A DNA stretch of 64,000 nt from Squalus acanthias (Eukaryota): positions 49,354,001 through 49,418,000 of the forward strand of contig CM059432.1 in assembly GCA_030390025.1 (NCBI GenBank). The letters are read 5' to 3'. The notes beneath the pieces are model-generated. The model was not told the DNA's origin. It saw only the letters and a list, made by a program, of their open reading frames with translations, and made no database searches. The position numbers were made by a program, and so were the translations under genes. Shown here in pieces: positions 726 to 63,479 of this stretch. Position 1 is the stretch's first letter. Each line of letters starts with the position of its first letter.

Positions 726-1197
726 GACTGGGAGCAAGTGGTCTAACTAGAAACCTTAAAGTTAGAAGCAAGGCCTTCTCCCCTTGCAGCACCACTCCCC
801 GTCACCTCACCAACTTTAAACAACTGTAGAAAGCTCCAAACAGTTCCACAAACTTACACAGAGCCAGTAGAAATCACCAACTAACCTTAGAGTGGTTGCT
901 GATCCCTTTAAATATCACTAGTAGGCGGTCCTTGCTGATGCTGTGTGCGAGGTTAACACAGGGCGTTAGCTCCAGCGTTGACGACCAAAATGGCAGTGCT
1001 GGCGATTGATGTCACGATCTGCACACTCTGCATACTTCTGGTGCACGCTCCTAACGTCTGCCCTACCGCCCTCACCAAGATGGCACCCATCGCGGCCATA
1101 CCAGAAGTGTGCATGCGCGGTGCGCATGCCATTTTCGGCATAAAACAGCATCCATAGCACCGAAAAATCAGGTGCTACGGAGCCGAATTTGTCGCCC
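1..1197 (-). mobile_element. PIF/Harbinger transposon, transposase-side end (truncated by the window edge)
   Basis: Contains a transposase pseudogene. Ends in GAATTTGTCGCCC (1185-1197), whose reverse complement GGGCGACAAATTC matches the Harbinger TIR pattern of other elements here. TATTTAAA on - at 907-914 lies upstream of the transposase. Confidence 0.85.
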
Positions 1198-11211: not shown

Positions 11212-12044
11212 GGGCTGGATTTTGAAGTTGGGGTCGGGTTGGTGTCGTGAATCCCACATTTTGGCTTGTACACCCGCCTCCATCGAGATGTGGCCAACCC
11301 ACTGTATTTTCCCTTGATTGACCTTGTTGAGCCCGCCCAGTGGGCTCAGCAGGCCAATTAAGGGCCACCCAGCAACAGGTGATGTCACAGATTGACATTT
11401 CATCTGTCAAGAGCTTTTGACAGATGAAATATCAGCGTTTGACAGCTCTGTGAAGCTGTCAAACACTGACAATATGATTTCTAACTTGAGTCCTTCCTCT
11501 CAGGCTGAGTTAGAAATCATTCCACCACAGAAAACAGAAGACTGCAGTTTTTGACAGTACCACGGCTTTTCTGCTTTCTGTGCCGGTGAGATTTCTGACT
11601 CCCGAGAACTGAAGGGCTGACACCTGCAGGAGGAAGTTAAGGTAAGTAAAACTTTTCCCCACACTTAGCACTTACCTTACACACTTACCTCTGCACACAT
11701 GCACCCATCACTCACCTGCCCACTGGACATACCGACCCCTCCAACCCCTGCAGACCCATGGTCCGCCCCGATAACTTGGCGTGGTTGCCACCTGTCGGGA
11801 AGCCCACATTTCACCTTTTAAAATAGGGATTAGGCAAAAAACTGCCTGTTAACTACCTGTTAACAGGCAGTTAATTGTCACTAATCCCTTCCCGCCTCGG
11901 GGAGTCGAGTCTCAGCACAGGTCGGGTACCCGCCGCCAGAGAAACTGGCATGGAGGCGGGATGGGGTCGGGACCCTCGAATCTGCAACTTTAACCCCCCA
12001 CACGCCTCCAAACCCGACTCCACGGGTCATTGAAAATCCAGCCC
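11212..12044. mobile_element. Non-autonomous Harbinger-type element with internal hairpin array
   Basis: Perfect 12-bp TIR GGGCTGGATTTT / AAAATCCAGCCC and exact ACT TSD (11209-11211, 12045-12047). Reverse-orientation relative of 15940-16783. Confidence 0.9.
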
Positions 12045-15939: not shown

Positions 15940-16783
15940 GGGCTGGATTTTGTCAGCCCCGAGGAGGCAGGTATGGAGGCGGGAGAGCCGGTAAAGTTGC
16001 AGAATTTGGGGGCGGGTGGCAAACCTGCCCCCAACCCGCCTCCGTGCCCTCTTGCCAGGAGGCGGGAAGCCGTCCTGTCCCGGGCCCCGTCTCCTCGAGG
16101 CGGAAAGGGATTAAAGCCTATTAACTGCCTGTTAACAGGTAGTTAACAAGCAGAAAATAGGATTATCCCCATTTTTCCTTCCGAAGTGCAGGCTTCCCGA
16201 CCTCATGGAACCCCGCCAGGGTGTAGGAGACGAGTAGGAGGTCTGCAGGGGTCAGAGGGGTCTGAAAGTGCGATGTAGACATGAGTGATGGGTGCAAGTG
16301 TGGAGTGGTAAGTATGTAAGGTGAGTGTAAAGTGTTAGAAAATGTTCACTTACCTTTGTTTCTGCCTACAGCCTTCAGTCGCTGTGGAGCCGGAGTCCCG
16401 ACATCTCCATTGTCGATATCACAGACTGGCTGTTGGATCCTCCAAACCAACAGCCAGGTGATTTCTGCAAAGTTGAAAGGTTTGATGAGTCCTGAACACA
16501 AGGACTCATCAAACTACACACAATGTCAGTGTTTGACAGCTTCACAGAGCTGTCAAACGATGACATTTCTTCTTTCAAAAGTTCTTGACAGATGACACGT
16601 CATACGTTGACGTGCTCCGTCACTGACTTCCCCCTAATTGGCCTGCTGAGCCCGCTGGGCGGGCTTAACAAGGTCAATCAGGGGAAAATCCCACTGGTTG
16701 GCCAGAAGCTGATGGAGGCAGGATTGAAAGCCGGCAAGCAGCAGTCTCGCCTCCAAAAGCTTCCCATTCAGAAAATCCAGCCC
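15940..16783. mobile_element. Non-autonomous Harbinger-type element
   Basis: Perfect TIR GGGCTGGATTTT / AAAATCCAGCCC with flanks TAT / AAT. Inverted homolog of 11212-12044. Confidence 0.88.
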
Positions 16784-19797: not shown

Positions 19798-20187
19798 GGG
19801 CTGGAGAGAAACTTGGAGTGGGAGGGGGAGGATCCAGTTGTCGTGGTCCATGTTGGTACCAATGACATAGATAGGACAAGGAAAGAGGTTCTGCTGAGGG
19901 AGTTTGAGCAGCTAGGGGCCAAATTAAAAAGCAGAACCTCGAGGGTAATAATCTCTGGATTACTACCTGAGCCACGAGCAAATTTGGCTAGGGTAAATAA
20001 AATCAGGGAGTTGAATGCGTGGCTCAAAGACTGGTGTGGGAAAAATGGGTTTTGCTTCTTGGGACACTGGCACCAGTACTGGGGCAGGAGAGAGCTGTTC
20101 CGTTGGGACGGACTTCACTTGGCCAGTGCTGGGACTAGTGTCCTGGCAAATCGAATAACTAGGGCTGTGGAGAGGGCTTTAAACTAA
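19798..20187 (+). pseudogene. CR1 ORF1 C-terminal SGNH esterase-like domain (5'-truncated)
   Basis: VVVHVGTND (GxND block) and WDGLHL (DxxH block), typical of CR1 ORF1p. The N-terminus is missing. Confidence 0.88.
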
Positions 20188-20225
20188 TTAGTGGGGGGGA
20201 GGTTTCAAGAGAGCAAAAAATAAAA

Positions 20226-23168
20226 ATGACAACAGAGAGGGTCATAGACATAGGTAGCAGTAGGGGAATCACAAATCAGAGCGTGGCAGGAAGGGACAGA
20301 GTGTGTGGAGTAAAAGGTAAACTGGTAAAAAGTGAAAAAGCAGGAACTAAGTGCCACAAAGCATATTTGAAAGTTCTCTATCTGAATGCACGTAGCATTC
20401 GTAACAAAATAGACGAGTTAATGGCACAAATAACTACATATGGTTATGATATTGTGGCCATTACAGAAACATGGCTGCAGGGTGACAATGCCTGGGAATT
20501 AAACATACCAGGTTATTTAACGATCAGGAAGGACAGGCAGGAAGGAAGGGGAGGTGGGGTGGCTATGTTAATAAAGGAAGGAATCACTGTAATACAGAGT
20601 AATGATATTGGGTCAAAAAATCATGATAATGAAACAGTTTGGGTGGAGATAAGGAATAATAAGGGGAAAAAAACATTAGTGGGCGTAGTCTATAGGCCTC
20701 CGAACAGTTGCAACTCTATTGGACGGAGTATCAATCAGGAAATAGTTGAGGCATGTAATAAGGGAACATCTATAATTATGGGGGATTTTAACTATCATAT
20801 TAATTGGACAAATCAAATGGGGCAGGGCTGCCTTGAGGATGAGTTCATTGAGTGTATTAGGGATGGGTTTCTTGAGCAGTATGTAACTGAACCGACCAGG
20901 GGGCAAGCAACCTTAGATCTGGTCCTGTGTAACGAGACAGGATTAATTAAAAATGTCCTAGTAAAGGATCCCCTTGGAATGAGTGACCATAACATGGTTG
21001 AATTCCATATTCAATTAGAGGGTGAGAAGGTTGGATCTCAAACAAGCTTGAATAAAGGAGACTATGAAGGTATGCGAGCGGAATTGAGTAGAGTGGATTG
21101 GGAAAATAGATTAAAGGGTAAGACGACACATGATCAGTGGTGTACATTCAAGGAGTTATTTTACAACTTCCAAAAAAAATATATTCCACTGAAAAGAAAA
21201 GGGTGTAAAAGAAAGGACAGTCATCCGTGGCTAAGTAAAGAAATTAAGGATAGTATTCGACTAAAAACAAGGGCATATAAGGTAGCGAAATCTAGTGGGA
21301 GGACAGAGGATTGGGAAAACTTTAAAAGGCAGCAAAAAATAACAAAAAGATTGATTAAGAAAGGGAAGATAGATTATGAAAGTAAATTAGCAAAAAATAT
21401 AAAAACAGATAGTAAGAGTTTTTATAGTTATATAAAAAGAAAAAGGGTGGCTAAAGTAAATGTTGGTCCCTTAGAGGATGAGACCGGGAAATTAATGGTG
21501 GGAAATATGGAGATGGCAAAAACACTGAATGAATATTTTGTATCAGTCTTTACAGTAGAGGACACTAAGAATATCCCAACACTGGACAAACAGGGGGCTA
21601 TAGGGGGAGAGGAGCTAAACACGATCAAAATCACTAAGGAAGTGGTACTCGGTAAAATAATGGGACTCAAGGCGGATAAATCACCTGGACCTGATGGCTT
21701 ACATCCTAGAGTCTTGAAGGAAGTGGCGGTAGGGATTGTAGATGCATTGGTAATAATTTTTCAAAACTCCCTGGATTCCGCTAAGGTCCCGGCAGACTGG
21801 AAAACTGCTAATGTAACACCCTTATTTAAAAAGGGCAGTAGACAGAAGGCTGGTAACTATAGACCGGTTAGCCTAACATCTGTGGTAGGTAAAATTTTGG
21901 AGTCCATTATTAAGGAAACAGTAACAGGACATTTGGATAATCATAATTTAATAGGACAAAGTCAGCATGGTTTTACGAAGGGGAAGTCATGTTTGACAAA
22001 TTTGCTGGAGTTCTTTGAGGAAGTAACATATAGAGTGGATAAAGGGGAACCAGTGGACGTAGTGTATTTAGACTTCCAAAAGGCATTTGACAAGGTGCCA
22101 CACAAAAGATTATTGCTTAAGGTAAAAAATCACGGGATTGGGGGTAATATTCTGGCATGGATAGAGGATTGGCTATCTAACAGAAAGCAAAGAGTTGGGA
22201 TAAATGGTTCATTCTCAGACTGGCAATCAGTAACTAGTGGTGTTCCACAGGGGTCAGTGCTGGGTTCCCAACTCTTCACAATCTATATTAACGATTTGGA
22301 GGAAGGGACCAAGTGTAACATATCAAAATTTGCAGATGATACAAAGATGGGAGGGAAAGTAGTGAGTGAGGAGGACATAAAAAACCTGCAAGGGGACATA
22401 GACAGGCTAAGTAAGTGGGCAGAGATTTGGCAGATGGAATACAACACTGGAAAGTGTGAGGTGATGCACTTTGGCAGGAAAAATCCTAGAGCAATTTATT
22501 ATCTTAATGGCAAGAAACTGGAGAGTACTGAAGTGCAAAGGGATCTGGGGGTCCTGGTGCACGAAACTCAAAAGGTTAGTATGCAGGTGCAGCAAGTGAT
22601 TAAGAAGGCAAATGGAATGTTGGCTTTCATTGCTAGGGGGATAGAATATAAAAATAGGGAGGTATTGCTTCAGTTGTACAAGGTATTGGTGAGACCGCAC
22701 CTGGAATACTGCATACAGTTTTGGTGTCCTTACTTAAGGAAAGACATCCTTGCTCTCGAGGCAGTGCAAAAAAGGTTCACTCGGTTAATCCCGGGGATGA
22801 GGGGGTGGTCATATGAGGAAAGGTTGGGTAGATTGGGACTCTACTCATTGGAGTTCAGAAGAATGAGAGGCGATCTTATTGAAACATATAAGATTGTGAA
22901 GGGGTTGGATCGGGTGGATGCGGGGAGGATGTTCCCGATGACGGGTGAGACGAGAACTAGGGGACATAGTCTTAGAATAAGGGGCTGCTCTTTCAAAACT
23001 GAGATGAGGAGGAACTACTTCACTCAGAGGGTGGTAGGTCCATGGAATATGCTGCCACAAAAAGCTGTAGAAGCTACAACATTAATTAAATTTAAAACAG
23101 AAATAGACAGTTTCCTAGAAGTAAAGGGCATTAAGGGTTACGGGGAGCGGGCAGGAATTTGGACATGA
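20226..23168 (+). CDS. CR1 ORF2 apurinic endonuclease-reverse transcriptase, uninterrupted 980 aa
   Basis: APE motifs YLNARS, ITETWL, VYRPP, MGDFN and SDHN. RT motifs [38 protein letters not shown] and FADDTK. No stops. Confidence 0.95.
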   Translation: MTTERVIDIGSSRGITNQSVAGRDRVCGVKGKLVKSEKAGTKCHKAYLKVLYLNARSIRNKIDELMAQITTYGYDIVAITETWLQGDNAWELNIPGYLTIRKDRQEGRGGGVAMLIKEGITVIQSNDIGSKNHDNETVWVEIRNNKGKKTLVGVVYRPPNSCNSIGRSINQEIVEACNKGTSIIMGDFNYHINWTNQMGQGCLEDEFIECIRDGFLEQYVTEPTRGQATLDLVLCNETGLIKNVLVKDPLGMSDHNMVEFHIQLEGEKVGSQTSLNKGDYEGMRAELSRVDWENRLKGKTTHDQWCTFKELFYNFQKKYIPLKRKGCKRKDSHPWLSKEIKDSIRLKTRAYKVAKSSGRTEDWENFKRQQKITKRLIKKGKIDYESKLAKNIKTDSKSFYSYIKRKRVAKVNVGPLEDETGKLMVGNMEMAKTLNEYFVSVFTVEDTKNIPTLDKQGAIGGEELNTIKITKEVVLGKIMGLKADKSPGPDGLHPRVLKEVAVGIVDALVIIFQNSLDSAKVPADWKTANVTPLFKKGSRQKAGNYRPVSLTSVVGKILESIIKETVTGHLDNHNLIGQSQHGFTKGKSCLTNLLEFFEEVTYRVDKGEPVDVVYLDFQKAFDKVPHKRLLLKVKNHGIGGNILAWIEDWLSNRKQRVGINGSFSDWQSVTSGVPQGSVLGSQLFTIYINDLEEGTKCNISKFADDTKMGGKVVSEEDIKNLQGDIDRLSKWAEIWQMEYNTGKCEVMHFGRKNPRAIYYLNGKKLESTEVQRDLGVLVHETQKVSMQVQQVIKKANGMLAFIARGIEYKNREVLLQLYKVLVRPHLEYCIQFWCPYLRKDILALEAVQKRFTRLIPGMRGWSYEERLGRLGLYSLEFRRMRGDLIETYKIVKGLDRVDAGRMFPMTGETRTRGHSLRIRGCSFKTEMRRNYFTQRVVGPWNMLPQKAVEATTLIKFKTEIDSFLEVKGIKGYGERAGIWT

Positions 23169-26825: not shown

Positions 26826-26996
26826 AGAAGCTCTTCCTAGAAAATGATGACTACTTCGTGTTCCAAAGACGTTTCATCTTTACAAAAGCATTTCTAACTT
26901 TCTCATCTTACATCAATCCAATATGTTTCTGTAATATTTGAATGTCACTTTAAAAAATATTAGTCTGATTTTCAATTGGTCTGAGTTGGGAATAAT

Positions 26997-27738
26997 GGCC
27001 CAAAAATTTGTGTTGATACGCGAGAGTACGCACTGTGTACTCTCGCGTATTCTGTCTCCAATTGCTGGTTTTCTGCATGCACTGCGCATGCGCTGAAAAC
27101 CGGCACTTGGTGAATGGAAAAGGGGGCGGTTCCTAGGTGAACCGCGTGCGCGCTACAGGCTGCGCGCATGCAGTGCACTTAGTGGTTTCAACGCGCAGGT
27201 AAGTAGGGAAGATTTTACACATAAAAAAAGGAGGAGTAAGACCCACTTTTAACAAGGTAAGTAGTGAATTAAGTATTATTTTGAATTTTTTTTAACAGGT
27301 ATATCTTTTTTAGAGACTTTAAAGACAGGTAAGTTTATTTTTATAACTTTTTAAAAGATTTTAAATTTTTTCAAAAATTTAATTTTTTATTTAAAATGGT
27401 TAATTTATTTAACTATACTTATTTTATTAATGTGATGTTTTTTTTTAAATTTAATTGAGGTTTAGCTGTTCTTTTGGGGGGCTATAGTATTCATAGCTTT
27501 CACAGCACTTATGTGAAAGTTATGAATGGAAGATGGTGTGCTGCCATTGGCTCTAACTGAGTCACGTGATCCCACAGCTCGCACGAATTAACTACGCCTG
27601 TGGGATACGAAAGCACTGCACAGCAGCTGTCCAGAACATCAAGTTCGTGCGAGCTGGAACTGAAAAAGCCAACGCGCAGTGAGAGATCGCGGGGAAGCCT
27701 TACCCTCGCACGAAGGCTTCCTCACGAATTTTTGGGCC
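26997..27738. mobile_element. Non-autonomous Harbinger-type element (GGCCCA-TIR family)
   Basis: TIR GGCCCAAAAATTTGTG / CACGAATTTTTGGGCC (15/16) with flanks AAT / ATT. Highly similar to 38235-38954. Confidence 0.88.
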
Positions 27739-29934: not shown

Positions 29935-30682
29935 GGCCCAGAATTTACGGTCCTGATGACGGCGATCTGGCAGCATTCACCATCATATCGCTTTGAAACT
30001 GACCGCAACTTCAGGATTTAGCGCATGCGCAGCCTAATGCTGAAATCCTGAAGTTGCGGTCTGTCATTCACTGCTCCTCCACAGGCTGCGCTCTGCCACC
30101 CGCACCCCACCCCTTCCCCACCCCCGCCACCCACCTCAGAGCCAGCAATCAGTGTAATCTCTCAAATTATGGAAACTGACTGGGTTGTTAAATACCCCAT
30201 TAAAAGTTAGACCCAAAGGGATTACTTGTAACTGGGGTTTTAACAGCGTATGACTGCTAAACAAAGGTTATGGCCCTGAAAAACTAAATTTAATTTGGTG
30301 CAGTGTCAAATTTATCAACTTTAGTAAAAAATTTAAATTAAGAAACTTTTAAAAGTTTGTTCATCTTTTTCAGGTTTGCCTTTTCCCCATGTGAGAGCCC
30401 CAATCTTTGTTTTGCTCTCTTTAATATTTAAAAAAAGTTAGAATTTAAAGAGCTTTCTGGTTTGCTGTCTATGAGAATTCTGCATTTTGATTGGCTGCTT
30501 AGACAGCTTGTTGACCTCACAGCAGCTCGCACTAGGGGATCCCCACTATACTACTTTGATTTGAATTACTCGTCAGAAAACCCAAACTTCTCGACACAGA
30601 GATCGCGAGATCTTTGTGCGAAGCTTACGTCAGGGCCGGTGGCAAACGCCTTCGCTTCGCCGCTGACCGCAAATTCCGGGCC
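29935..30682. mobile_element. Non-autonomous Harbinger-type element (GGCCC-TIR, different interior)
   Basis: TIR GGCCCAGAATTTACGGTC / GACCGCAAATTCCGGGCC (16/18) with flanks ATT / AAT. Confidence 0.85.
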
Positions 30683-32165: not shown

Positions 32166-33067
32166 CCCATATCAGACCCCTCCTGAATGTCAGCGCCCAC
32201 GATTCCCGACCCTCCAGCCCCCCTCCCACTGTGGGGGGGAGGAAGTGTGCACTGCGGCATGAAATTTAATCCAATGATCGTCACATAAATAATCTAGAGG
32301 CAGCGCCTTGGAGACCCATCCTCCTTTTCGCGAGAGTACCGGTCATTTCGGTGTAGTCCTCAGCTTTTGTGGAATGGGGAGTTCTTTACCCAGCATCCGT
32401 AGTGGCAGAGAAACCCCTCTATCCCTGGGATAGAGCTGTGCAAGCATTCATTCCCAAAGATAGAGTGGTTTCTCTGCCACTATGGATGCTGGGTAAAGAA
32501 ATCTCCATTACACAAAAGCCGTTTTTTTTCACCCATTGCCGCCTCACAGTTATCTGCGTGTCCAGTGTTTCGAGTTGCAAACGGACTTGGTGATTTGAAG
32601 GCTGTCTGTAGTTCGTAAGTTGCAAGTGTCCATGGTTTCAAGGTGCTGATTATATTGTAACTGTTATAACGCAAGTTATTTTGGACTCTCAGTAAGTGTC
32701 CGCTTTTTGCAAGTGTCCGTTTGTGCAGGTTTTACTGTAGTTGTGAAGTCTTAATTTCTGCTACAACGTGTATTCCAAGGAGAGGGGGAGGGATGTAGTT
32801 TGCTCATCCAGACACTAGAATTGAGAACTGAGAGTTTTCATAGCTGAGCAGCATTGTGTAACTTAAAAGGATCAAGTACTAATCCTGGAAAATAAGTAAT
32901 CAGTTTCAGCAGTGAATTGGCTCCCTTGAAAGCTGCGGGATTCTTCAGGATTCTCACGGAAAAAAGGGGATGCTGATAATACAGCATTACAGCATTATGG
33001 AACCATTCTTGGAGGCACTTGGAAAATCTGGCCAGTCCATCTCTGATCAGTGTTTATAAAAGCACTA

Positions 33068-36511: not shown

Positions 36512-38234
36512 TGCACCACCTCACACTTATCTATATTGAAATGAATTGTCCATTGACACGGTTATTCTGCAAGTTTGTTAATGTCTTGTATTTTGTCGCA
36601 TTCTTCCTCAGTATTAACCATGCCCCCGCCCCCAATTTAGTGTCATCCACAAATGTTGATATTGTATTTCCGATTTCCGAGTCCAAATGTAAATGGTGAA
36701 CAACCGTATTGATCATGGCTAGTGATTTTATGGCACAAAATAGTTAATATATAAACTCCCAAACTGGTTCCTCTACAATCTTATTTTGAACTCCAGTTAA
36801 ACTAATGCCACTATTTGGTGAAACAAATTCCAAATGCTTAAAGCTAGCCCATTCCTTCACTGATTCAATGGTATTACGACACACTGCTCATCACTACAAA
36901 GAATTTGTCTGACAGCTGTTCTTTCTCCAATTTAATTCTGGGTTGTGTCAAACTCTGTGCTCATAGCCTTTGTGGCTTGAGTCCTTGCTTTCTGTAGACA
37001 AATCCCTGACATTAACTGCAGCCCGAAGCATCACAAGCAGTATCTGCTGATGTCCTTGACTTACAAGTTTAACACCATCCCAATCCATCGGATTAGTCAA
37101 TTAAACTATTATCCCCGAGATGTTGGCATTAAACATACTGGATTTGTCCAAGAGCACTATCAACAGAGTTCAGTCGTCATTTTTAGTGTTTGATTCTGCT
37201 CCAGGTTGTGGATTAGACTTTATGTTACACTTCACAAATTGCTATTCTTCTAATTGTATTCTACTCATGTCACCATTGTCATTTCTGGAAACTCTCTGCT
37301 TTTGGAAAGTGCAATGGGAACTTAAAGGGCTGCCATTTGTGAACCAAATGATATTTATCCCTTCCAGCAGAGATGTTCAAAATAAATAAAACTGTACTCA
37401 GCAGTCATGGATCACTGGTCAAAAGGTGAGAAACTATATCATTACTGATGTGATAAATGTCCCAGACACAGTGCATGGAAAGAGGTATGATGAAAGTTTC
37501 ACACTCAGAAATACTCAACAAAGAAAATGGCCATGCAAGGGACAAGGGACAGGGTGTGGCGCCTGTTCACATGGGAATAGGAACCATGTAAAATTGGTGC
37601 TGGGACCTCATTATAATGGTCAGGCGTGCAGCCAGCGCTACCTGTGTATGCTTATTGGCTGCACGCCTGTTTGGGAGGGTTGGGAAATTGGGCGTCTCTG
37701 ACGCTACTTAAAGGCAACCTGCATCTCTTAAAGGGGAGGTGCACTCTGGCAGCAGACAGAAGGAAGCGCTTCTGAAGAGTAAAATGGCTGCAAGAGTTGC
37801 AGATCAGGCCCCCAAGTACTCCTCTGATGCCCCTTTGGGTGCCCTGGTCCAGGTGGTGGACTGGAGGAGGGGGATCCTGTTGGGTGGGCAGAGCAGAAAG
37901 CCCTTCAGGGAACACCTCTATCACCAGTAGGAACAGGTGGCTGGAGTTTAAAGCAAGGAGCTTAGCTCCCAGGACATGGCTTTACTGCCGAAAAAAGTTT
38001 AATGAACTCCACAGAGTTGTCAAGGTAAGAATCCTACCTCTTATCTCAATTACTCTCTCCTCACACCTACAGCCTCACTACTCACACCATTCCCCTCCCT
38101 GTTTCCATTCACTCTCCTACAATAACTGCACCACACTTCACTCCACCTCCTTCTTCTACTCACATACTCTTCACCTCCTACTCTCAGCACTATTGCAAAC
38201 CTCACTTTCCCACACCTCACATCTTACACACAAT

Positions 38235-38954
38235 GGCCCAGAAATTCGGCCGAATACAGGAGAGTAAGCACTGTGTACTCACCCGTATTCGGTCCCGAAG
38301 TGCCGGTTTCCTGCATGCACTGCGCATGTGCGGGAAACCGGCACTTCCGATATTGCCGCATCGGCAGCACACTGAGGTTTTTTTTCAGGTTTGAACGCGA
38401 GGGTAAGTATGGAAGATTTTACACATGAAAAAAGGAGGCGTAAGACCCCCTTTTAACAAGGTAAGTAGTTAATTAAGTATTATTTTAAATTTTTTTCAAC
38501 AGGTTTATCTTTTTTAGAGACTTTAAAGAAAGGTAAGTTTATTTTTATAACTTTTAAAAAGAATTTAAATTTTTTCAAAAATTTAAATTTTTGTTTAAAA
38601 TGGTTAATTTATTTAACTATAGTTATTTTATTAATGTGATGGTTTTTTTTTAAATTTAATTGAGGTTTAGCTGTTCTTTTGGGGGCAAGTTGTATTCATA
38701 GTTTTGACAGTTCTCCTGTCAAAACTATGAATGAAAGATGGTGTGCTGCCATTGGCTCTAACTGGCCCACGTGATCCCAGAGGTCGCATCGAACTAACTG
38801 CGCCTCTGGGACACGCACACACTGCGCGCCGGCACCAGGGAGAGGCCCAGGACCAGAAGTTCGTGTGGGCCCAAACCATAAAGGCAGGCACGGTAGGTAA
38901 GATCGCGCCGGATCCTTACCCCCGCGGCAACCATCTAAGTCTAATTTCTGGGCC
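38235..38954. mobile_element. Non-autonomous Harbinger-type element (GGCCCA-TIR family), nested in the Myb intron of the older element
   Basis: Perfect TIR GGCCCAGAAATT / AATTTCTGGGCC with an exact AAT TSD. Confidence 0.9.
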
Positions 38955-39101: not shown

Positions 39102-39969
39102 GGGGGAGAAATTCGGTATCGCCCCGTTTGGGGCGCAATTATCGGCCGGGCGCAAAGTTTAGCGCCTGGCGCTAATTATCGCCTCCGACTGCAAACTTGG
39201 CTTCTATCGCCCCTGGAGGTGATTGGAGCGCTAAATCAGGCGCTACACACCTCTCTTAAGGCGCTAACGCCGAGGAGCGAGGCGCTATCTCAGAGTGCTG
39301 GCGAAGCTCATGTGATAGTCAGCAATGGAACACAGACACACTGGCGCTGGCCAGTTCTTAAAGGGGAGGGTCGATCTTGCTCTCCATCCACACCTTGCTC
39401 ATTGCAGCCTTGAATCTCGGCCTGGAGAGACCTGTACATCAAATCTGCTGGAAAGAACAATGGAGAGGCCCAGGGAAAGACGTCAGAGTGCAGCTCCCAT
39501 AGTCTCTTCTAAATTGATGCAAGGAAGATCAAATCAAAATGAACCTGCAAAGTGCTGCTCAGTACCCAAAACTCCTCAACACAGTGTTGAATATCTCCAG
39601 AAGTCTCTCTCTCTCACTCAGAATGCGTGGTGCTAAAATGTCGCCAAAAAAAAAGGCAGGAACCGGTTGCCTTTAAATAGCACTCCCCCAGTCCCTTCCC
39701 GACTACAAAACGTTCCCCTCAACCTGTCGTTACTAGCGGCAGGCGGTAAGGCAGGGGGCGCCACTCAATATCCGGTCCGGGGCTCGACTGACGTCACAAT
39801 CTGCGGGCGCAGGAGATCGTGGCGGTAGTGTTTAGCGCTGCCGCAAAATGTCTGGTCAATTTCGTGAGCGGCGCAAACATCGCCGCACCCAGGCGCTAGT
39901 TGCTTTGCGCTCCATTAGCGCCCTCTTAAGGCGCTAACAGGAGGCGCAAACCAACCGAATTTTTCCCCC
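39102..39969 (+). mobile_element. 868-bp deletion derivative of the 42962-47051 Harbinger family
   Basis: TIR GGGGGAGAAATTCGG / CCGAATTTTTCCCCC (14/15). Both arms align to the ends of the 4.09-kb element. Flanks ACA / ATA. Confidence 0.93.
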
Positions 39970-42668: not shown

Positions 42669-43322
42669 GCTAAGTGTTGTGAAGATTACTGGTAGGCCAG
42701 AGGATTGGGAAATTTTTTAAACCAGCAAAGGATGACTAAAAAAATAATGAAGAAGGAGAAGATAGATTATGAAAGTAAACTAGCAAAAAATATAAAAACA
42801 GACAGTAAGAGCTTCTACAAGTATATAAAAGGGAAGAGAGTAGCTAAAGTAAATGTTGGTCCCTTAGAGGATGGGACTGGGGAATTAATAATGGGAAACA
42901 GGGAAATGGCAGAGACTTTGAGCAAATATTTTGTATCAGTCTTCACGGTAGAAGACACTAAGGGGGAAATATTCAGTATCGCCCCGTTTGGGGTGCCATT
43001 ATCGGCCATGCGCAAAGTTTAGCGCCTGGTGCTAATTATCGCCTCCGACTGCAAACTTGGCTTTTATCGCCACTGGAGGTGATTGGAGCGCTAAATCAGG
43101 CGCGACACACCTGCCTTAAGGCGCAAAGGCCGAGGAGCGAGGCGCTAACTCAGAGCGCGGGCGCAGCGCAAGTGCTGTCAGTTAGCGATGGAACAGAGAC
43201 ACACTGGCACCGGACAGTTCTTAAAGGGGAGGGTCGATCTTGCACTCCAGCCACACCCTGCTCATTGGAGCCTTGAATCTAGGCCTGGAGAGACCTGTGC
43301 CTAAATCTTCCAGCCAAGGACT

Positions 43323-45084
43323 ATGGAGAGGGTGAGAGAACGAGCTCAGCGCTTCAGCGAGCGGGCCTTGGATGCTCTGGTTGGCACGGTGGAGCGCAGA
43401 AGATCTATACTCTTCCCTGAGAGTGGCAGGAGGCCTTTGCCCCGCGAGTACAGAAGAGTGTGGAGAGAGGTGGCTCAGAGCGTCTCCTCCAGGAGCATGG
43501 TGCCCAGGACCCATACTCATTGTCGAAAAAAGTTCAACGACCTCACTCGGGTCGTCAGGGTGAGTGGACTTTTTTCAATACCTCTCCATCCCTCCATCTC
43601 AACCTCACTCTATGGCCAGAGGGTCTTAAAACCCCAATGCCCAACACTCATCCAACACCTATGGCCCTCTCATGAAACACACACGCACATTCCACACTTT
43701 GCATACAGTAAGGGCTATTCACCTATGGGAGTCACATCAGGCAAGACCATGGCTGTATATTTACTCAGATGCCGTCCTTTTTCTTGCAGGCCAAGCTATC
43801 TCATAATAGGAGACAGCAGCAACGGACGGGTGGAGGGCGGCCTCAGCTGCAACCCCTCAGCGATCTGGAGGCGCGCGTCCACAGGATTGTGGCAAGCCAG
43901 GTGATCGGTCCCATCGCCCTTGGAGAGGCTGACCCCGTTCTGGACAGCAATGGAAAGGTCATCACCTTTTTCTCCTCTCTCCTTCCACTTGTCCCTCACA
44001 ACACCAGCCTTTGACACATTCAATCCAACTTACTAAATCGCTGCACTCATTCCTCCCTTACTGCCCCCCTGTCCTCATGCTAAAGCCACTCTTGTACCTC
44101 CCTGCTTTCAGATGGTGATTCACCAGCTGAGGAGATGGGCCCTCAAGCTGCCAGTGGGAGTGAAGCTGCAGGCGAGGAGGAAGATGAAGCCGGAGAATCA
44201 GCGTCACCCTCTCCCAAGGAAGCCCATGCCCACACTGGGAACACGCCGTCCCTGGAGGGGAGCAGGGGGCGTCTGATGAGGGTGAAGTTCCAGGACCCAG
44301 TGGGCTGCAGCAACGTGATGGGGGTAGGGAAGCTCGGGGGCCTTCGCCCCGGAGGGAGAGTATGCCAGCGAGTCCTGCTGCACTGGATGCAGAGGAGGAG
44401 CGGCTCATCGCTGAAATGAACACCCAGGCGGTGGACATGCACACTGAGCTCATGGGTGCAGTGAGAAGGGTGCCCGAATGCATTGAATCACTGGCAAGGA
44501 GTGTGGAGCACTTCGCTGTAGTACAGGCAGATGCCACGCTAAAGCTTAGTGCTGCAATTCAGTCACTGGCTGCCATGACCCCATCTCAGACTGCTCTCAT
44601 GCAGACTCAGATTGAGGTCACGCAAGCACTGACTGCTGCCATTCTCGCTGGTTCGGACACATTTCTCCGGGGCTCTCACCGCGCCGCAGCAGGCCAGCAA
44701 TCTGTGCTCCAGCAGATTGCTCCGGATGCTGAAGTGCTGCCCCGTGGGAGTGCCAGTGTGTCGGTCGAGCAGGGAGTTGCTGTCCTCTCTCAAGATGACA
44801 GCATTCCTGCTGCCACCACTGTCACTTCTCCATTGCACTTGCCACCGCCTGTAGGCCAGACTGCTGCCGCCCATGCAGAGTTGGTGCAGTCTGTAGCCGG
44901 GCCCTCCAGGCCCAGAGCTGGTCGAGGCCGTCCTTCAAGGGCATCTGCAGTCTCATTTTCTGACAATCAGCAGCCTTGCACCAGCCTTGCTGCAGCCACT
45001 GGGGCCCCATTATGGAGGAGCAGTAGGGTGGGAAGGGGGGAAGTGCGCAAGGGAAGGAGATCACCCTCGAAGGGCAAAAAGTAG
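43323..45084 (+). pseudogene. Harbinger Myb/SANT-like DNA-binding protein gene, 3 exons (43323-43559, 43790-43952, 44112-45084), probably disabled
   Basis: Exon 1 MERVRERAQRFSERALDAL..VWREVA..RTHTHCRKKFNDL ends at a phase-0 GTGAGT donor. Acceptor TTCTTGCAG leads to AKLSHNRRQQQRTGGG. The exon 2 donor reads GAAAGG instead of GTAAGG. Exon 3 needs a 1-nt frameshift near 44257-44260. Confidence 0.85.
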
Positions 45085-45396
45085 GAGGTGTGACAAAATG
45101 TTTGTCAATTTTTTATTAAAGGCCGAGTTTCGTGGTCAAACTTTTGTTTAGTGTTTTGGACATTATCTCCAGGTTGTGAGAACCAGTTATGTTAATGACT
45201 GGTTTTTTTGTGTTTCTTTCTATTAGTTTGTCATGAAGAAATGACACACACAGAGTTTGTAAAATAAATAATTTTTTGGATTCAAAATGTACATATTTGG
45301 TCTTTGGAATCATTGTTGCCTTGGTCGGCTTAGGGGTTGCGGGTTGGTTTCATTCATGTTGTTCTCAATGGCAGAAGCCATTTCCTCAGCAGGGGC

Positions 45397-46542
45397 CTAG
45401 AAGCGGCTTGCTATCAGCCATTGACGGACGGCCCTTCCAGTTTCAACATTGTAGGCCTCCCTCCCACCTTGGTGCTGCTGCTGATCATCCTCCTCCTCTT
45501 CCTCCTCCTCCGGTGGTGCTCTAAGGCCTGGTGACATTGGCTGGGTCCTGAGGATTGCCAGGTTATCCAGCATGCAGCACACAACTATGAAGGGGGAGAC
45601 TCTCTCAGGCGAGTACTGTAGGGCTCCTCCTGAGTGGTCCAGACAGCGGAACCGTTGCTTGAGCACGTCGATTGTGTGCTCAACGATGTTCCTGGTGGCG
45701 AGATGGCTCGCATTGTACCGCAGCTCAGCAGGGGTGGTAGGGGTATGGAGCGGTGTCATCAGCCAGGTGCACAGTGGATAACCCTTGTCCCCGAGAAGCC
45801 AACCACTTGGGTGATGCGGTGCCTGGAAAAGGTCTGCCATAGTAGTCTGGCGTAGGATGAATGCATCGTGGCTGCTGCCAGGATAGCGGGCATTGACATC
45901 GAGTATCAGCTGTCTGTGGTCACAGACCAACTGGACGTTTAGGGTGTGGAATCCCTTTCGGTTGCGGAAATCCTCTGCATTCTCATGCGGTGCACGCAAT
46001 GCCACATGCGTGCAGTCAATGGCACCCTGCACCATGGGGAAGCCCGCTATCCTCGCAAAGCCCAATGCGTGTTCATGCTGTTTGGCCTGGGTTATCGGGA
46101 AAGAGATGTACTGTCGTCTCCTTTTATAGAGGGCATTTGTGACCTGACGGATGCAGCAATGGACAGCGAACTGGGAGATATTGGCGATGTCCCCAGTAGC
46201 TGCTTGAAAGGAGCCGGTGGCATAAAAGTTCAGAGCCACTGTGATCTTCACTGCCACCGACAGAGACGTCCTGGTCCTCAGTTGAGGCTGCAGATCTGGC
46301 TGCAGCAGGTGGCAGAGCTCAGTGATAACCTCCTTGCTGAAGCGCAGCCTTCGCAAACACTGCTCCTCAGACATATTAATGTAGGAGAATTGTTGGCGAA
46401 ATACCCTGGGAGGGTAAGGTCTCCTGTACAGAGGCCTGTTGGCCCTCCTCCATCTGGCCATGATTGCCACTCTCTCTCTGCGTCTCTGCGGCCTCCGAAT
46501 CTGCCGGCGCAGGATGACGCCCCCAATCAGTGCAGCCCCCAA
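45397..46542 (-). CDS. Harbinger DDE transposase (HARBI1-like), open for 381 aa, homologous start codon reads TTG
   Basis: GAIDCTH, RNRKGFHTLNVQLVCD, YPGSSHDAFI, LLGDKGYP, RNIVE and LKQRFRCL motifs, no internal stop. The homologous start is ATG at 39500-39498 in the derivative copy. Confidence 0.88.
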   Translation of the reverse strand: MGAALIGGVILRRQIRRPQRRRERVAIMARWRRANRPLYRRPYPPRVFRQQFSYINMSEEQCLRRLRFSKEVITELCHLLQPDLQPQLRTRTSLSVAVKITVALNFYATGSFQAATGDIANISQFAVHCCIRQVTNALYKRRRQYISFPITQAKQHEHALGFARIAGFPMVQGAIDCTHVALRAPHENAEDFRNRKGFHTLNVQLVCDHRQLILDVNARYPGSSHDAFILRQTTMADLFQAPHHPSGWLLGDKGYPLCTWLMTPLHTPTTPAELRYNASHLATRNIVEHTIDVLKQRFRCLDHSGGALQYSPERVSPFIVVCCMLDNLAILRTQPMSPGLRAPPEEEEEEEDDQQQHQGGREAYNVETGRAVRQWLIASRF

Positions 46543-46734
46543 AGTCTCTTGGCAATCAAAGTAATGAAGGTCAAAAACAAAAGTACCTGCAAAGTGATGC
46601 TCAGTAGCCAAAACTACTTCACACAGCGTTGACTCTATGCAGAAGTCTCTCCTTCTCTCTCTCAGAATCTCTCTCTCTGTCAGAACGAGTGGTGCAAAAG
46701 TGTTTACCACAGAAAAAGCCAGGAAGAGGCCGCG

Positions 46735-46878
46735 TTTAAATAGCGCCCCCCAACCCCACAACAACTGGGAAATGTTCCAGTCGACCTGTCGTTGCTTGCG
46801 CCAGGCGGAAAGGAGGGGGGCGCCACTCAATATCCGCTCCGGGGCGCCACAAGTGCGTTGCACGCTCGAATGACGTCA
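46735..46878 (-). promoter_or_regulatory. Putative transposase promoter: CRE (TGACGTCA 46871-46878) and TATA-like TATTTAAA (46742-46735)
   Basis: Both motifs are conserved in the same order in the derivatives (39789-39796 / 39672-39679 and 62755-62762 / 62892-62899). Confidence 0.55.
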
Positions 46879-49214
46879 AGATCTGTGTGCGCAGGAGATC
46901 GGGGCGGTATTGTTTAGCGCCGCCGCAAAATGTCTGGTCAATTTTGCGAGCGGCGCAGATATCGCCGCGCCCGGGCGCTAGTTGCTTTGCACCCCATTAG
47001 CGCCCTCTTAAGGCGCTAACGGGAGGCGCAAACCAACTGAATTTTCCCCCCTAAAAGCATCCCAATAATAATTGATAATCAAGGGGCTATAGGGAGGGAG
47101 GAACTTAAAACAATGACTATCACGAGAGAAAAAGTACCAGGCAAACTAATGGGACTAAAGGCTGACAAGTCCCCTGGACCTGATGGCCTACATCCTAGGG
47201 TCTTAAAAGAAGTGGCTGCAGAGATAGTGGATGCGTTGGTTGTAATCCACAAAAATTCCCTGGATTCTGGAGAGGTCCCAGCGGATTGGAAAACCACAAA
47301 TGTAATGCCCCTATTCAAGAAAGGAGGGAGGCAAAAAGCAAGAAACTATAGACCAGTTAGCCTAACATCTGTCATTGGGAAAATGCTGGAATCCATTATT
47401 TAGGAAGTAATAGCAGGACATTTAGAAAATCAAAAGACAATCAAGCAGAATCAACATGGTTTTCTGAAAGGGAAATCGTGTTTGACAAATTTACTAGAGT
47501 TCTTTGAGGATGTAACGAGCAGGGTGGATAAAGCGGAACCAGTAGATGTAGTGTATTTGGATTTCCAGAAGGCATTCGATAAGGTGCCACATAAAAGGTT
47601 ACTGCACAAGATAAGAGCTCATGGGGTTGGGGGTAGTTTATTGGCATGGATAGAGGATTGGCTAACTAACAGAAAACAAAGAGTCGGGATAAATGGGTCA
47701 TTTTCCGGTTGGCAAACTGTAACTAGTGGGATGCCACAGGGATCAGTGCTGGGGCCTCAACTATTTACAATCTATGTTAATGACTTGGATGAAGGGACCG
47801 TGTGTATTGTAGCCAAATTTGCTGATGATATAAAGATAGGTGGGGAAGCAAGTTGTGAGGAGTACACAAAGAGTCTGCAAAGGGTTATAGATAGGCTAAG
47901 TGAGTGGGCAAAAATTTGGCAGATGGAGTGTAATGTGGAAAAATGTGAGGTTATCCACTTTGGTAGGAAAAATAAAAAAGCAAATTATTATTTAAATGGA
48001 GAGGCTACATAATGCTGCGGTACAGAGGGATCTGGGGGTCCTCGTACATGAAACACAAAAAGTTAGCATGCAGGTACAGCAAGTAATTCGGAAGGCAAAT
48101 GGAATGTTGGCCTTTATTGCAAGGGGAATGGAGTATAAAAGTAGGAAAGTCTTGCTACAACTGTACAGGGCGTTGGTGAGACCACATCTGGAGTACTGCG
48201 AACAGCTTTGGTCTCTTTATTTAAGGAGGGATATACTTGCATTGGAGGCAGTTCAGAGAAGGTTCACTAGGTTAATTCCTGAGATGAAGGGGTTGTCTTA
48301 TGAGGAAAGGTTGAGCAGGTTGGGCCTATACTCATTGGAGTTTAGAAGAATGAGAGGTGATCTTATTGAAACATATGAGATTCTGAGGGGGCTCGACAGG
48401 GTAGATGCTGAGAGGATGTTTCCCCTCGTGGGAGAATCTAGAACTAGGGGGCAGTTACAGGATGAGGGGTCGCCCATTTAAAACGGAGGGATTTCTTCTC
48501 AGAGGGTCGTGAATCTTTGGAATTCTCTACCCCAGAGAGCTGTGGAGGCGGAGTCATTGAATATATTCAAGGCGGAGATAGACATATATTTGAGCTACAG
48601 GGGAGTCAAGGGTTATGGGGAGCGGGCGGGAAAGTGGCATTGAGGCCAAGATCAGATCAGCCATGATCTTATTGAATGGTGGGGCAGGCTCGAGGGACTG
48701 AATGCCCTACTCCTGCTCCTATTTCTTATGTTCTTAGTACATTAAATTGGTTCTCAAGCAACATTAAATAGATTAGTAGTTCTCCCATTGTATTGCTCAG
48801 TTTCTGATGCTTATCATGGTCCTATGAGAACCAAATGCAGATAAAGTCTGCAAGGAAGCCACCAGAGGCAACACTCATCTTGACCTGGTAATCCCTAATA
48901 TCCCAGACAATGAACAGCACCCTGGGGGACAATGACCATAGAATGATCAAGTTCAACAGAATCTGGGATTTAAAAATACCCAAGACCAGAATTCTGCTAT
49001 ATAAAACTTTAAAGGACTAAAGGTAAAGAAATGAGTGTAAAACAAAAGGTAATGGATTGGAGTAGGTTGCTCAACAACACATCAGTGAAGAGAATTTGAA
49101 CATCTCTGCCCTCAACCCTGGTGGAGCCCAGCATGTCAGTTTAGCAGACAAGGTATTATAGTTAATGGTATTGGACTAGCAAGCTAGAAGTCATGGGTTT
49201 AACCGGCCCCCAAT

Positions 49215-61477: not shown

Positions 61478-62582
61478 AGCCCCTTGCTCATATTTTCAAT
61501 AGTTCTTTGGAGTTGGGTATCATTCCGGATGACAGGAGGGAGCGTCATGTTGTACCAATATTTAAAATGATAGAACTGGGACTCTGGGATTTGTTAAAGG
61601 CAAATCGTGTTTGACTAACTTGATTGAGTTCTTTGATGAAGTAATTGAGAGGGTTGATGAGAGTAGTGTGTTTGATGTTGTGTATGTGGACTTTCAAAAG
61701 GCATTTTATAAAGTACAACATAATAAACTTGTTTGCAAAATTGAAGCCCATGGATTAAAGGGGCAGTGGCAGCGTGGATACAAAATTGGCTAAGGGACAG
61801 AAAGCAGAAAGTAGTGGTGAGCGGTTGTTTTTCACACTGGAGGGAAGTGTGCAGTGGTGTCCCCCAGGGGTCGGTGTTGGGACCACTGCTCTTTTTGATA
61901 TGTATTAATGACTGGGATTTCGATATACAGGGCATAATTTAAAAGTTTACAGATAACACGGGGGCGATTTTCCCAGCCCCAAGGAGGCTGGTTTGGAGGC
62001 GGGATATTTGGCATAATCGCAAAATGTGAGGGCGGGTTCGGAACCCGCCTCCAAGCAATTTTGCCAGAGGCGGGTTTCATGGGTGCGATTCGGTCCCGCC
62101 TCCATCAGTCGGGGGAGGTAGTTAAGACCCTTAAATAGTCGTTAAGGGCCTCTATAATCCTATTTTGACAGGCCTTTGTTATTTTGCCACATTTTGTGCA
62201 TGTTGCACGACCCTCCTAAACCACGCCAGCTAATCCTGGCGGGTTGACAAGTGGGTGGCCTCCTCACAGCTGCAGCTCCACCATTAAAACGGAGCTTTCA
62301 TCAGGGAAACATAGAAGATCGGAGCAGGAGTAGGCCATTTTTGACAGATGAAACGTCATACGCTGACGTTCTCTGTAACCGGTTTTCCCTTAATTGGCCT
62401 GCTAAGCCCGCTGGGCGGGCTTAACAAGGTCAATCAAGGGAAAATAGCGTGGGTTGGCCAGAAGTTGATGGAGGCGGGACTAAAACCCGACAAGTGGGAG
62501 TCCCGCCTCCAAAAGCTCCCCATTGGCAAAATCCAGCCCGTAGTAAACAGTGAGGTGGATAGTAACAAACTTCAGGAAGACA
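61478..62582 (+). mobile_element. Degraded CR1 RT fragment interrupted by a Harbinger-type element
   Basis: [30 protein letters not shown] and KFTDNT. Resumes at 62540 (GTAGTAAACAGTGAGG..CAGGAAGAC). Confidence 0.82.
61960..62539. mobile_element. Non-autonomous Harbinger-type element, apparently chimeric
   Basis: Termini GGGGGCGATTTT / AAAATCCAGCCC. The left arm resembles 41275-41600 and the right arm resembles 16585-16783. No TSD. Confidence 0.8.
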
Positions 62583-63479
62583 AGGGGAAAAATTCAGTTG
62601 GTTGCGCCTCCCGTTAGCGCCTTAAGAGGGCGCTAATGGGGCGCAAAGCATCTAGCGCCCAGGCGCGGCAAAGTTTGCGCCGCTCGCGAAATTAACTAGA
62701 CATTTTGCGGTGGCGCTAAACACTACCGCCACGATCTCCTGCGCCGGCAGATTGTGACGTCAGTCGAGTGCGCAATGCCCCGGTATCGCCCCGGAGCGGA
62801 TATTGAGTGGCACCCCCTGCCTTACCGCCTGACGCTAGCAACGACAGGTTGAGGGGAGCGTTCTGCAGTCATGAAGGGAAAGGGGGAGCACTATTTAAAG
62901 GTGACCGCTTCCTGCCTTTTATTGTTGGTGCCATTTTTGAATTACGCATTCCGAGAGAGAGAGAGAGAGAGAGACTTCTGGAGAGATTCAACGTTGTGTG
63001 AAGGAGTTTTGGGTACTGAGCAGCACTTTGCAGGTTCATTTTGATTTGCCATTCCTTGTATCGATTTAGAAGAGACTGTGGGGGCTGCACTCGGAGCTCT
63101 TTGCCTGGTACTCTCCATCGTTCTTTCCAGCAGATTTGATGTGCAGGTCTCTCCAGGCCGAGATTCAAGGCTGCAATGAGCAGGATGTGGATGGAAAGCA
63201 AGATCAACCATCCCCTTTAAGAACTGGCCCGTGCCATTGTGTGTGTGTTCCATTGCTGACTGACATTACATGAGCTTCGCCAGCGCTCTGAGGTAGCGCC
63301 TCGCTCCTCGGCCTTTGCGCCTTAAGACAGGTGTGAAGCGCCTGATTTAGCGCTCCAATCACCTCCAGGGGCGATAAAAGTCAAGTTTGCAGTCGGTGGC
63401 GATAATTAGCGCCAGGCGCTAATCTTTGCGCCCGGCCGATAATTGCGCCCCAAATGGGGCGATACTGAATTTCTCACCC
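62583..63479 (-). mobile_element. 897-bp deletion derivative of the 42962-47051 Harbinger family, reverse orientation
   Basis: Reverse-complement homolog of 39102-39969. TIR AGGGGAAAAATTCAGT / ACTGAATTTCTCACCC. Confidence 0.93.

Follow-up and report, generated by a model that had tools for sequence, protein, structure and literature searches.

Compensatory base changes in the two arms of a hairpin are usually taken as proof of a working RNA structure. The locus described here raises the question of why the palindromes of a non-coding DNA transposon should change in the same way. The window, by which we mean the whole 64-kb stretch of vertebrate DNA analysed, is rich in CR1-type LINEs and Harbinger transposons, and has an RVT/endonuclease ORF at 20163-23168. 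Copy 1 of the element is a non-coding Harbinger-type sequence of 742 bp (26997-27738, plus strand) with 12-bp TIRs at both ends, the left one being GGCCCAAAAATT (26997-27008, plus strand) and the right one lying at 27727-27738 (minus strand). Its sister, copy 2 (38235-38954, plus strand, 720 bp), is 81% identical to it over the aligned columns and also has 12-bp TIRs; the TIRs of both resemble other Harbinger ends in the window. Copy 1 has no ORF of at least 120 aa, and tblastn against the window's transposase and Myb domain gave no match to it. The two copies are non-autonomous PIF/Harbinger elements (MITE-like), with short TIRs, no coding sequence and a high copy number. Harbinger3N_DR from zebrafish and Harbinger-N12A_XT from Xenopus are likewise non-coding, with short TIRs, 3-nt flanks and high copy number, and, like here, there are autonomous two-gene Harbingers in the same genome.

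A near-complete autonomous Harbinger of 4090 bp with TAA/TAA flanks was found at 42962-47051, harboring a DDE_Tnp_4 transposase (45397-46875, minus strand) and a Myb_DNA-bind_5 gene (at 43305, plus strand). Its TIRs are related to those of copy 1, yet different, and a cognate autonomous partner with the ends of copy 1 was not found within the 64-kb window. Deletion derivatives of this Harbinger are present at 39102-39969 and 62584-63479. Copy 2 is situated some 200 bp downstream of the decayed Myb-like exon of a Harbinger (37769-38027) and was probably inserted in an intron of that decayed gene. A related family with the same TIR type is found at 29935-30682 (plus strand). The 3-nt flanks are AAT/ATT in copy 1, AAT/AAT in copy 2 and ATT/AAT in the related family, while the target site duplication expected for PIF/Harbinger is 3 bp, according to the part of PMC9179366 available. 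In two of the three elements with this TIR the flanks are mirror images and not direct repeats (26994-26996/27739-27741 and 29932-29934/30683-30685), which could be due to point changes, to mixed ends or to symmetrisation extending past the TIR.

At least seven local inverted repeats are present in copy 1. Stem 1 (27016-27050) has perfect 14-bp arms and a 7-nt spacer, GCACTGT, and its symmetry carries on inward to a 1-nt centre at 27033. Further out, at 27010-27056, an extension of it is paired in copy 2, and the family variants 27054C and 27055A restore part of the pairing. Stem 2 (27059-27109) has 15-bp arms, one T.G in its inner part (27063-27105) and a 21-nt spacer, which contains TGCGCATGCGC (27083-27093), a candidate motif that we take to resemble the NRF1 site. 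Two small stems follow: one has 7-bp arms (27126-27145), in a segment missing from copy 2, and the other 8-bp arms (27146-27169), made perfect by the family variant 27169C (71-100%). Towards the right end there are stem 3 (27489-27527), with 16-bp arms and a 7-nt spacer that differs between the copies at 4 of its 7 positions, a stem with 8-bp arms (27570-27605) and, just inside the right TIR, a stem with 15-bp arms and two transition mismatches (27687-27727), whose register is lost in copy 2. The stems of copy 2 are located at 38250-38292, 38297-38347 and 38694-38732. Spacers are mostly 5-8 nt long, and those of 7 nt recur. A preliminary description of this DNA had reported two tandem hairpins, 27016-27050 and 27063-27105, with counterparts at 38250-38292 and 38297-38347, and all of these were confirmed in the sequence. 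The two hairpins are not special, as palindromes run through the element and many Harbinger-type ends in the window; the extension of stem 2 to 27059/27109 and the covarying stems at 27489-27527 (two double changes) and 27570-27605 (one) had not been reported. In copy 1 the outer arms (27010-27056) and the pair 27062/27106 are mismatched, but the variants 27054C, 27055A and 27106A fit the left arms, and copy 1 may be a join of arms from two subfamilies.

The AT-rich core of copy 1 (27185-27480, plus strand; 38389-38684 in copy 2) is 94% identical between the copies, with 20% GC over 27231-27480. Non-CpG divergence between the copies is 14-29% at the element ends versus 5% in the core, and the element looks like a mosaic, with ends turning over faster than the core. 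Judged by sequence, the ends look promoter-like, with CpG at 0.87-1.12 observed/expected versus 0.44 in the window, NRF1-, CCAAT- and E-box-like candidate motifs, and donor-like motifs downstream. The second and third of these are ATTGG and GTCACGTGA (27546-27569), which we presume to correspond to a CCAAT box and an E-box. Three GGTAAG donor-like motifs lie inside the AT core on the plus strand (27198, 27256 and 27328); one more was seen at 27699 on the minus strand.

Stems were found by algorithm on one copy only and then compared with the other copy. Eight double Watson-Crick changes were detected in 83 pairs versus 1.63 expected (p=0.0002), two of the eight falling in the right end, where alignment is poor; six in 87 pairs versus 1.39 expected (p=0.0006) were counted when the reference was the other copy. 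Across the element, the palindrome arms of the two full copies compared have changed together beyond chance expectation. Double changes are found at 27021/27045 (C-G to G-C) in stem 1, 27059/27109 and 27072/27096 (the latter T-A to C-G) in stem 2, 27497/27519 and 27501/27515 in stem 3, and 27575/27600 (C-G to G-C) in the stem at 27570-27605. Most are isolated single pairs, not blocks. Five of the eight are transversion-type, for which no G.U step is possible, and CpG decay was rejected as their source on that account. In four named helices, all five doubly changed pairs remain paired, versus none in six slid controls, and 12 of 500 shuffles reach that result, this being a weak control with two sequences. 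The preliminary description had said that both arms changed together. This is correct for the pairs that it quoted, 27021/27045 and 27072/27096, but does not extend to stem 1 overall, where 10 of 14 pairs are kept, one is swapped and three are broken; one of its five changes is a double, and taken by itself stem 1 does not reach significance (p=0.13).

The same stretch, whole or in part, was found in 20 of 24 listed public runs, under six organism codes and other labels. Contigs mapped to 276 bp of it (26985-27260) numbered 3886, 800 and 158 in three runs, a measure of depth and not of copy number, and the element family is very abundant; a fourth run, of raw reads, gave no alignments and carries no weight. 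At family level, both partners of the stem-2 double change are variable in three organisms, 27072C having shares of 22, 22 and 44% and 27096G of 35, 47 and 60% in the three runs (unphased, with unequal shares). Inside stem 1 there were no variants at 4% or above in the three mapped runs, and its double change is known from copy 2 alone. The segment 27016-27183 has 25 variable sites. Unpaired positions account for 11 of them; five restore a pair with the other arm of copy 1, two are the stem-2 partners, two match one side of double changes in the window and one is mismatched either way. The last four, 27130G (which reaches 36% in one run), 27150A, 27152A and 27153G, disrupt pairs and have no partner among the listed variants. 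When variants in paired and unpaired positions were compared by Fisher tests, p was 0.002 for those that break pairs, 0.03 once the junction cluster was removed and 0.08 for the full set of variants; we do not rely on these figures because 27053-27055 were scored as unpaired though part of the outer stem. Summed depth over stem 2 exceeds that where the AT core begins by a factor of about 4-12 in all three runs, which, depth not being copy number, suggests that the stem-2 module is common to more families than the core. A pattern scan for further copies gave none in viral contigs, metagenome contigs and prokaryote genomes. Two viral loci found with a shorter pattern were dropped as chance matches, as they share only a 19-26-nt motif with the element.

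Other families in the window add to this picture. The related family has a 19-bp stem (30001-30061) that we regard as the counterpart of stem 2 from its equal distance to the TIR and 10/16 identity per arm. Compared with copy 2, it shows six double changes in 16 aligned pairs, all six paired and five of them transversion-type. Its spacer matches the stem-2 spacer of copy 1 better when reversed (score 24, versus 11 forward; 13/13 letters). The reversal is also explicable by unequal decay of a fully symmetric ancestor, and such a symmetric form exists at 1098-1141. This is at the end of another Harbinger (1098-1197, minus strand), which has a stem inside its TIR and is continued by a transposase remnant (609-1, also minus strand); the order there is TIR stem, stem-2-like palindrome and then YY1-like candidate motifs at 1077 and 987. 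A three-base block has changed with pairing kept in another family (1820-1848 versus about 16004-16032), which, like the reversed spacer, may be read in other ways. A second Harbinger-type family has rows of palindromes (11212-12044, 15940-16783, 1777-2618 and 61960-62539), and arms at matching positions can differ entirely and still be paired (16480-16514 versus 11474-11520). Same-subfamily comparisons in a third family, made of closely related copies, gave no double changes in six of six rows (101 pairs); such copies show one-sided decay only. Of 34 TIR-like ends, chosen by eye and some perhaps not true ends, 17 have an inverted repeat above shuffle level no more than 80 nt away, versus one of 40 CR1 controls. 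The remaining 17, the right end of copy 2 among them, have no such stem. Between families the arms turn over wholly, and the stem inside the TIR persists.

A few coincidental double substitutions, picked post hoc, could look like covariation. The result for stem 1 taken alone would suit this reading, as would the second, more diverged family, in which p<0.05 was reached in only 2 of 10 comparisons. Against these stand the element-wide p values of 0.0002-0.0006, obtained with stems defined on one copy, the six of six doubles that are paired in the comparison with the related family, and the variation of both stem-2 partners in three organisms. We therefore find it hardly credible that chance produced the pattern.

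The explanation that we prefer, with confidence that stands about even, is that DNA-level re-symmetrisation by template switching keeps the arms matched. A change in one arm would be copied onto the other by polymerase template switching, in lineages that are still amplifying. Since symmetry differs between subfamilies and only decays within them, it would be made or kept in such copies and not in inserted ones. Excerpts of PMC8604942 and PMC8794818 give spacer inversion and arm homogenisation as outcomes of template switching, along with one-step double changes of any type and mirrored blocks. The preliminary description attributed the symmetry to selection or to conversion within the element; active upkeep is supported, and among its options arm-to-arm copying, in the form of template switching, is the best fit. 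Classical gene conversion between arms was rejected, the arms being only 8-19 bp long.

The starting point is a non-coding, very abundant element of local palindromes, with arms that covary between subfamilies and families. One-sided breaks, the only kind seen in close copies, show that symmetry is not kept after insertion. The ends may derive from the CpG-rich promoters or subterminal parts of autonomous Harbingers, in which protein sites of palindromic form would seed the symmetry; the stem-2-like palindrome upstream of the transposase remnant, with YY1-like motifs after it, is a parallel to the element ends. Replication or post-excision gap repair could offer repeated chances for quasi-palindrome correction, and every new source copy would spread its re-symmetrised form as a subfamily. 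Selection for mobility might filter which versions spread. Any effect of the symmetry would act at the DNA level, with stems 1 and 2 upstream of any inward transcription start. In the portion of PMC11269187 available, NRF1 sites show a preference for positions upstream of start sites and YY1 sites for positions downstream, which would put stems 1 and 2 outside an inward transcript. Template switching at promoters is described in the accessible text of PMC13100816, and gap repair with template switching has been proposed for the birth of MITEs (PMC3814204, from an extract). In yeast, quasi-palindrome correction occurs during break repair, at the low rate of about 2-7 per million repair events (bioRxiv 2023.08.09.552703, partial text), and a purely neutral process may therefore be too slow. 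Further points against template switching are the absence of the stem-1 double at family level (at least 4%), the pair-breaking variants with no partner, the weak second family, the predominance of isolated single pairs among the doubles, the 27062/27106 mismatch left unrepaired in copy 1 and the unequal shares of the stem-2 partners.

For the first 134-136 nt, either strand of either copy folds with z of -6.2 to -7.6, and none of 200 shuffles was as stable. A structured RNA transcribed from the element, either a small-RNA precursor or a 5' leader, would be in keeping with such predicted folding (z about -7) and with pairing kept by double changes, as well as with the 51-65% of the element's words in runs guessed to be RNA and with the variant 27094G, by which the plus strand gains a U.G pair. 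However, both strands fold alike, the doubles are mainly transversion-type, the spacer is reversed in the related family, and Rfam gave no match at gathering score for the window and none up to E=1 for the element. No raw RNA reads contained the stretch. Among one-sided mismatches, G.T and A.C occur in similar numbers (1 and 2, or 3 and 3), mostly as a reflection of decay. For a Drosha-type precursor, stems of 14-19 bp would be short. A structured RNA, which the preliminary description had put forward, thus has no positive support; we hold it to be very doubtful, and the least likely when set beside dyad protein sites and extruded hairpins.

Protein binding is the second alternative. A dimeric protein, the Myb-like partner or a host factor, may need two half-sites in mirror arrangement and a set distance apart, both of which would have been altered stepwise as subfamilies adapted to different partners. 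The Myb-like protein of Harbinger3_DR binds a 9-bp subterminal motif in the available section of PMC9710019, and that motif, like the stems, is short, symmetric and placed just inside the TIR; the comparison is by description only, and the stem arms here differ in not being repeated at both ends. Stem 1 is symmetric down to its 1-nt centre, which is impossible for a hairpin to close, and ends far more diverged than the core (14-29% versus 5%) are as expected if they had been fitted to different partners. The recurrence of 7-nt spacers is also consistent with dyad sites. So is the spacer core GCACTG(C/T), identical in both copies and present four times in copy 1, at both ends, which is a better candidate protein site than the stem arms. 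In contrast, arm 8-mers are confined to the two arms, with 2-3 occurrences at the left end, and 11 of the 12 tested are missing from the right, while the autonomous Harbinger (42962-47051) repeats one 8-mer, a candidate Myb site, 7 and 5 times at its ends. The many distinct stem sequences would require as many distinct proteins, and complementarity is not needed once a base departs from the preferred one. The idea of palindromic Myb sites is thereby weakened for the stem arms, and we consider dyad sites unlikely as the source of the covariation. The Harbinger3_DR motif, in the form that we assume for it, has an 8-of-9 match to stem 1, the sole such match in the window.

Pairing itself may also be selected, if cruciforms or single-strand hairpins are extruded during transposition or gap repair. 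Variation at 27016-27183 lies mostly at unpaired positions or restores pairs (25 sites), a pattern that extrusion fits as well as template switching does. Spacers of 5-8 nt predominate, arms are replaced completely between families yet the stem inside the TIR stays, and the core of 20% GC adjoins the stems and could aid extrusion. On the other hand, the same pattern is predicted by template switching with no need of selection, 17 of the 34 TIR-like ends are stemless, including the right end of copy 2, and GC-rich stems with a 21-nt spacer, such as stem 2, extrude poorly. Harbinger transposition is of the cut-and-paste type, with no structure step in the portions of the literature searched. Extrusion under selection is accordingly rather improbable. 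A bolder form of it is a Harbinger clan in which shape, not sequence, would be the cis signal. Rows of extrudable hairpins, a number of them with a common GCACT(G) tip and placed beside an AT-rich unwinding core, would then be selected for pairing in cut-and-paste transposition or gap repair; we see this as a long shot.

Template switching, the reading that we favor, brings together two subjects that are each known in part. The internal repeats of Harbinger-N12A_XT are described as palindromic in the available text of PMC12676858. Unlike that element and Harbinger3N_DR, the present one has at least seven separate stems and not a single foldback, and covariation of arms between subfamilies is unmentioned in the accessible accounts of those two. 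The works on quasi-palindrome correction (PMC8794818, PMC8604942, PMC13100816 and bioRxiv 2023.08.09.552703, in the parts available) share with our data the homogenisation of arms, changes that look compensatory, possible inversion of the spacer and inverted repeats at promoter-like sites. Their subjects are genes for rRNA and miRNA, yeast genes and promoters, and reporters, whereas here we deal with a DNA transposon in many copies and with a mechanism that is proposed; the string 'transpos' is absent from the text of PMC8794818. Covarying internal palindromes in Harbinger elements were not described in the literature covered, which leaves most subscription papers and Repbase outside. Palindromes in a vertebrate Harbinger MITE and homogenisation by template switching are therefore known already, and covariation in Harbinger palindromes appears undescribed. 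If true, the usual reading of compensatory changes as RNA structure would have a clear counter-example in a huge transposon family whose covariation has causes at the DNA level, and the family's thousands of copies in several species would be a natural data set for template switching in the vertebrate germ line. Should the pairing itself be under selection, Harbinger transposition would gain an unknown structural step. No role of the palindromes for the host genome is indicated.

A long hairpin was also observed at 32363-32519, outside any recognised TIR element, with arms of 61-72 bp and a loop of 13-35 nt. Near it, at 32329, an 11-nt stretch is shared with one arm of stem 1.
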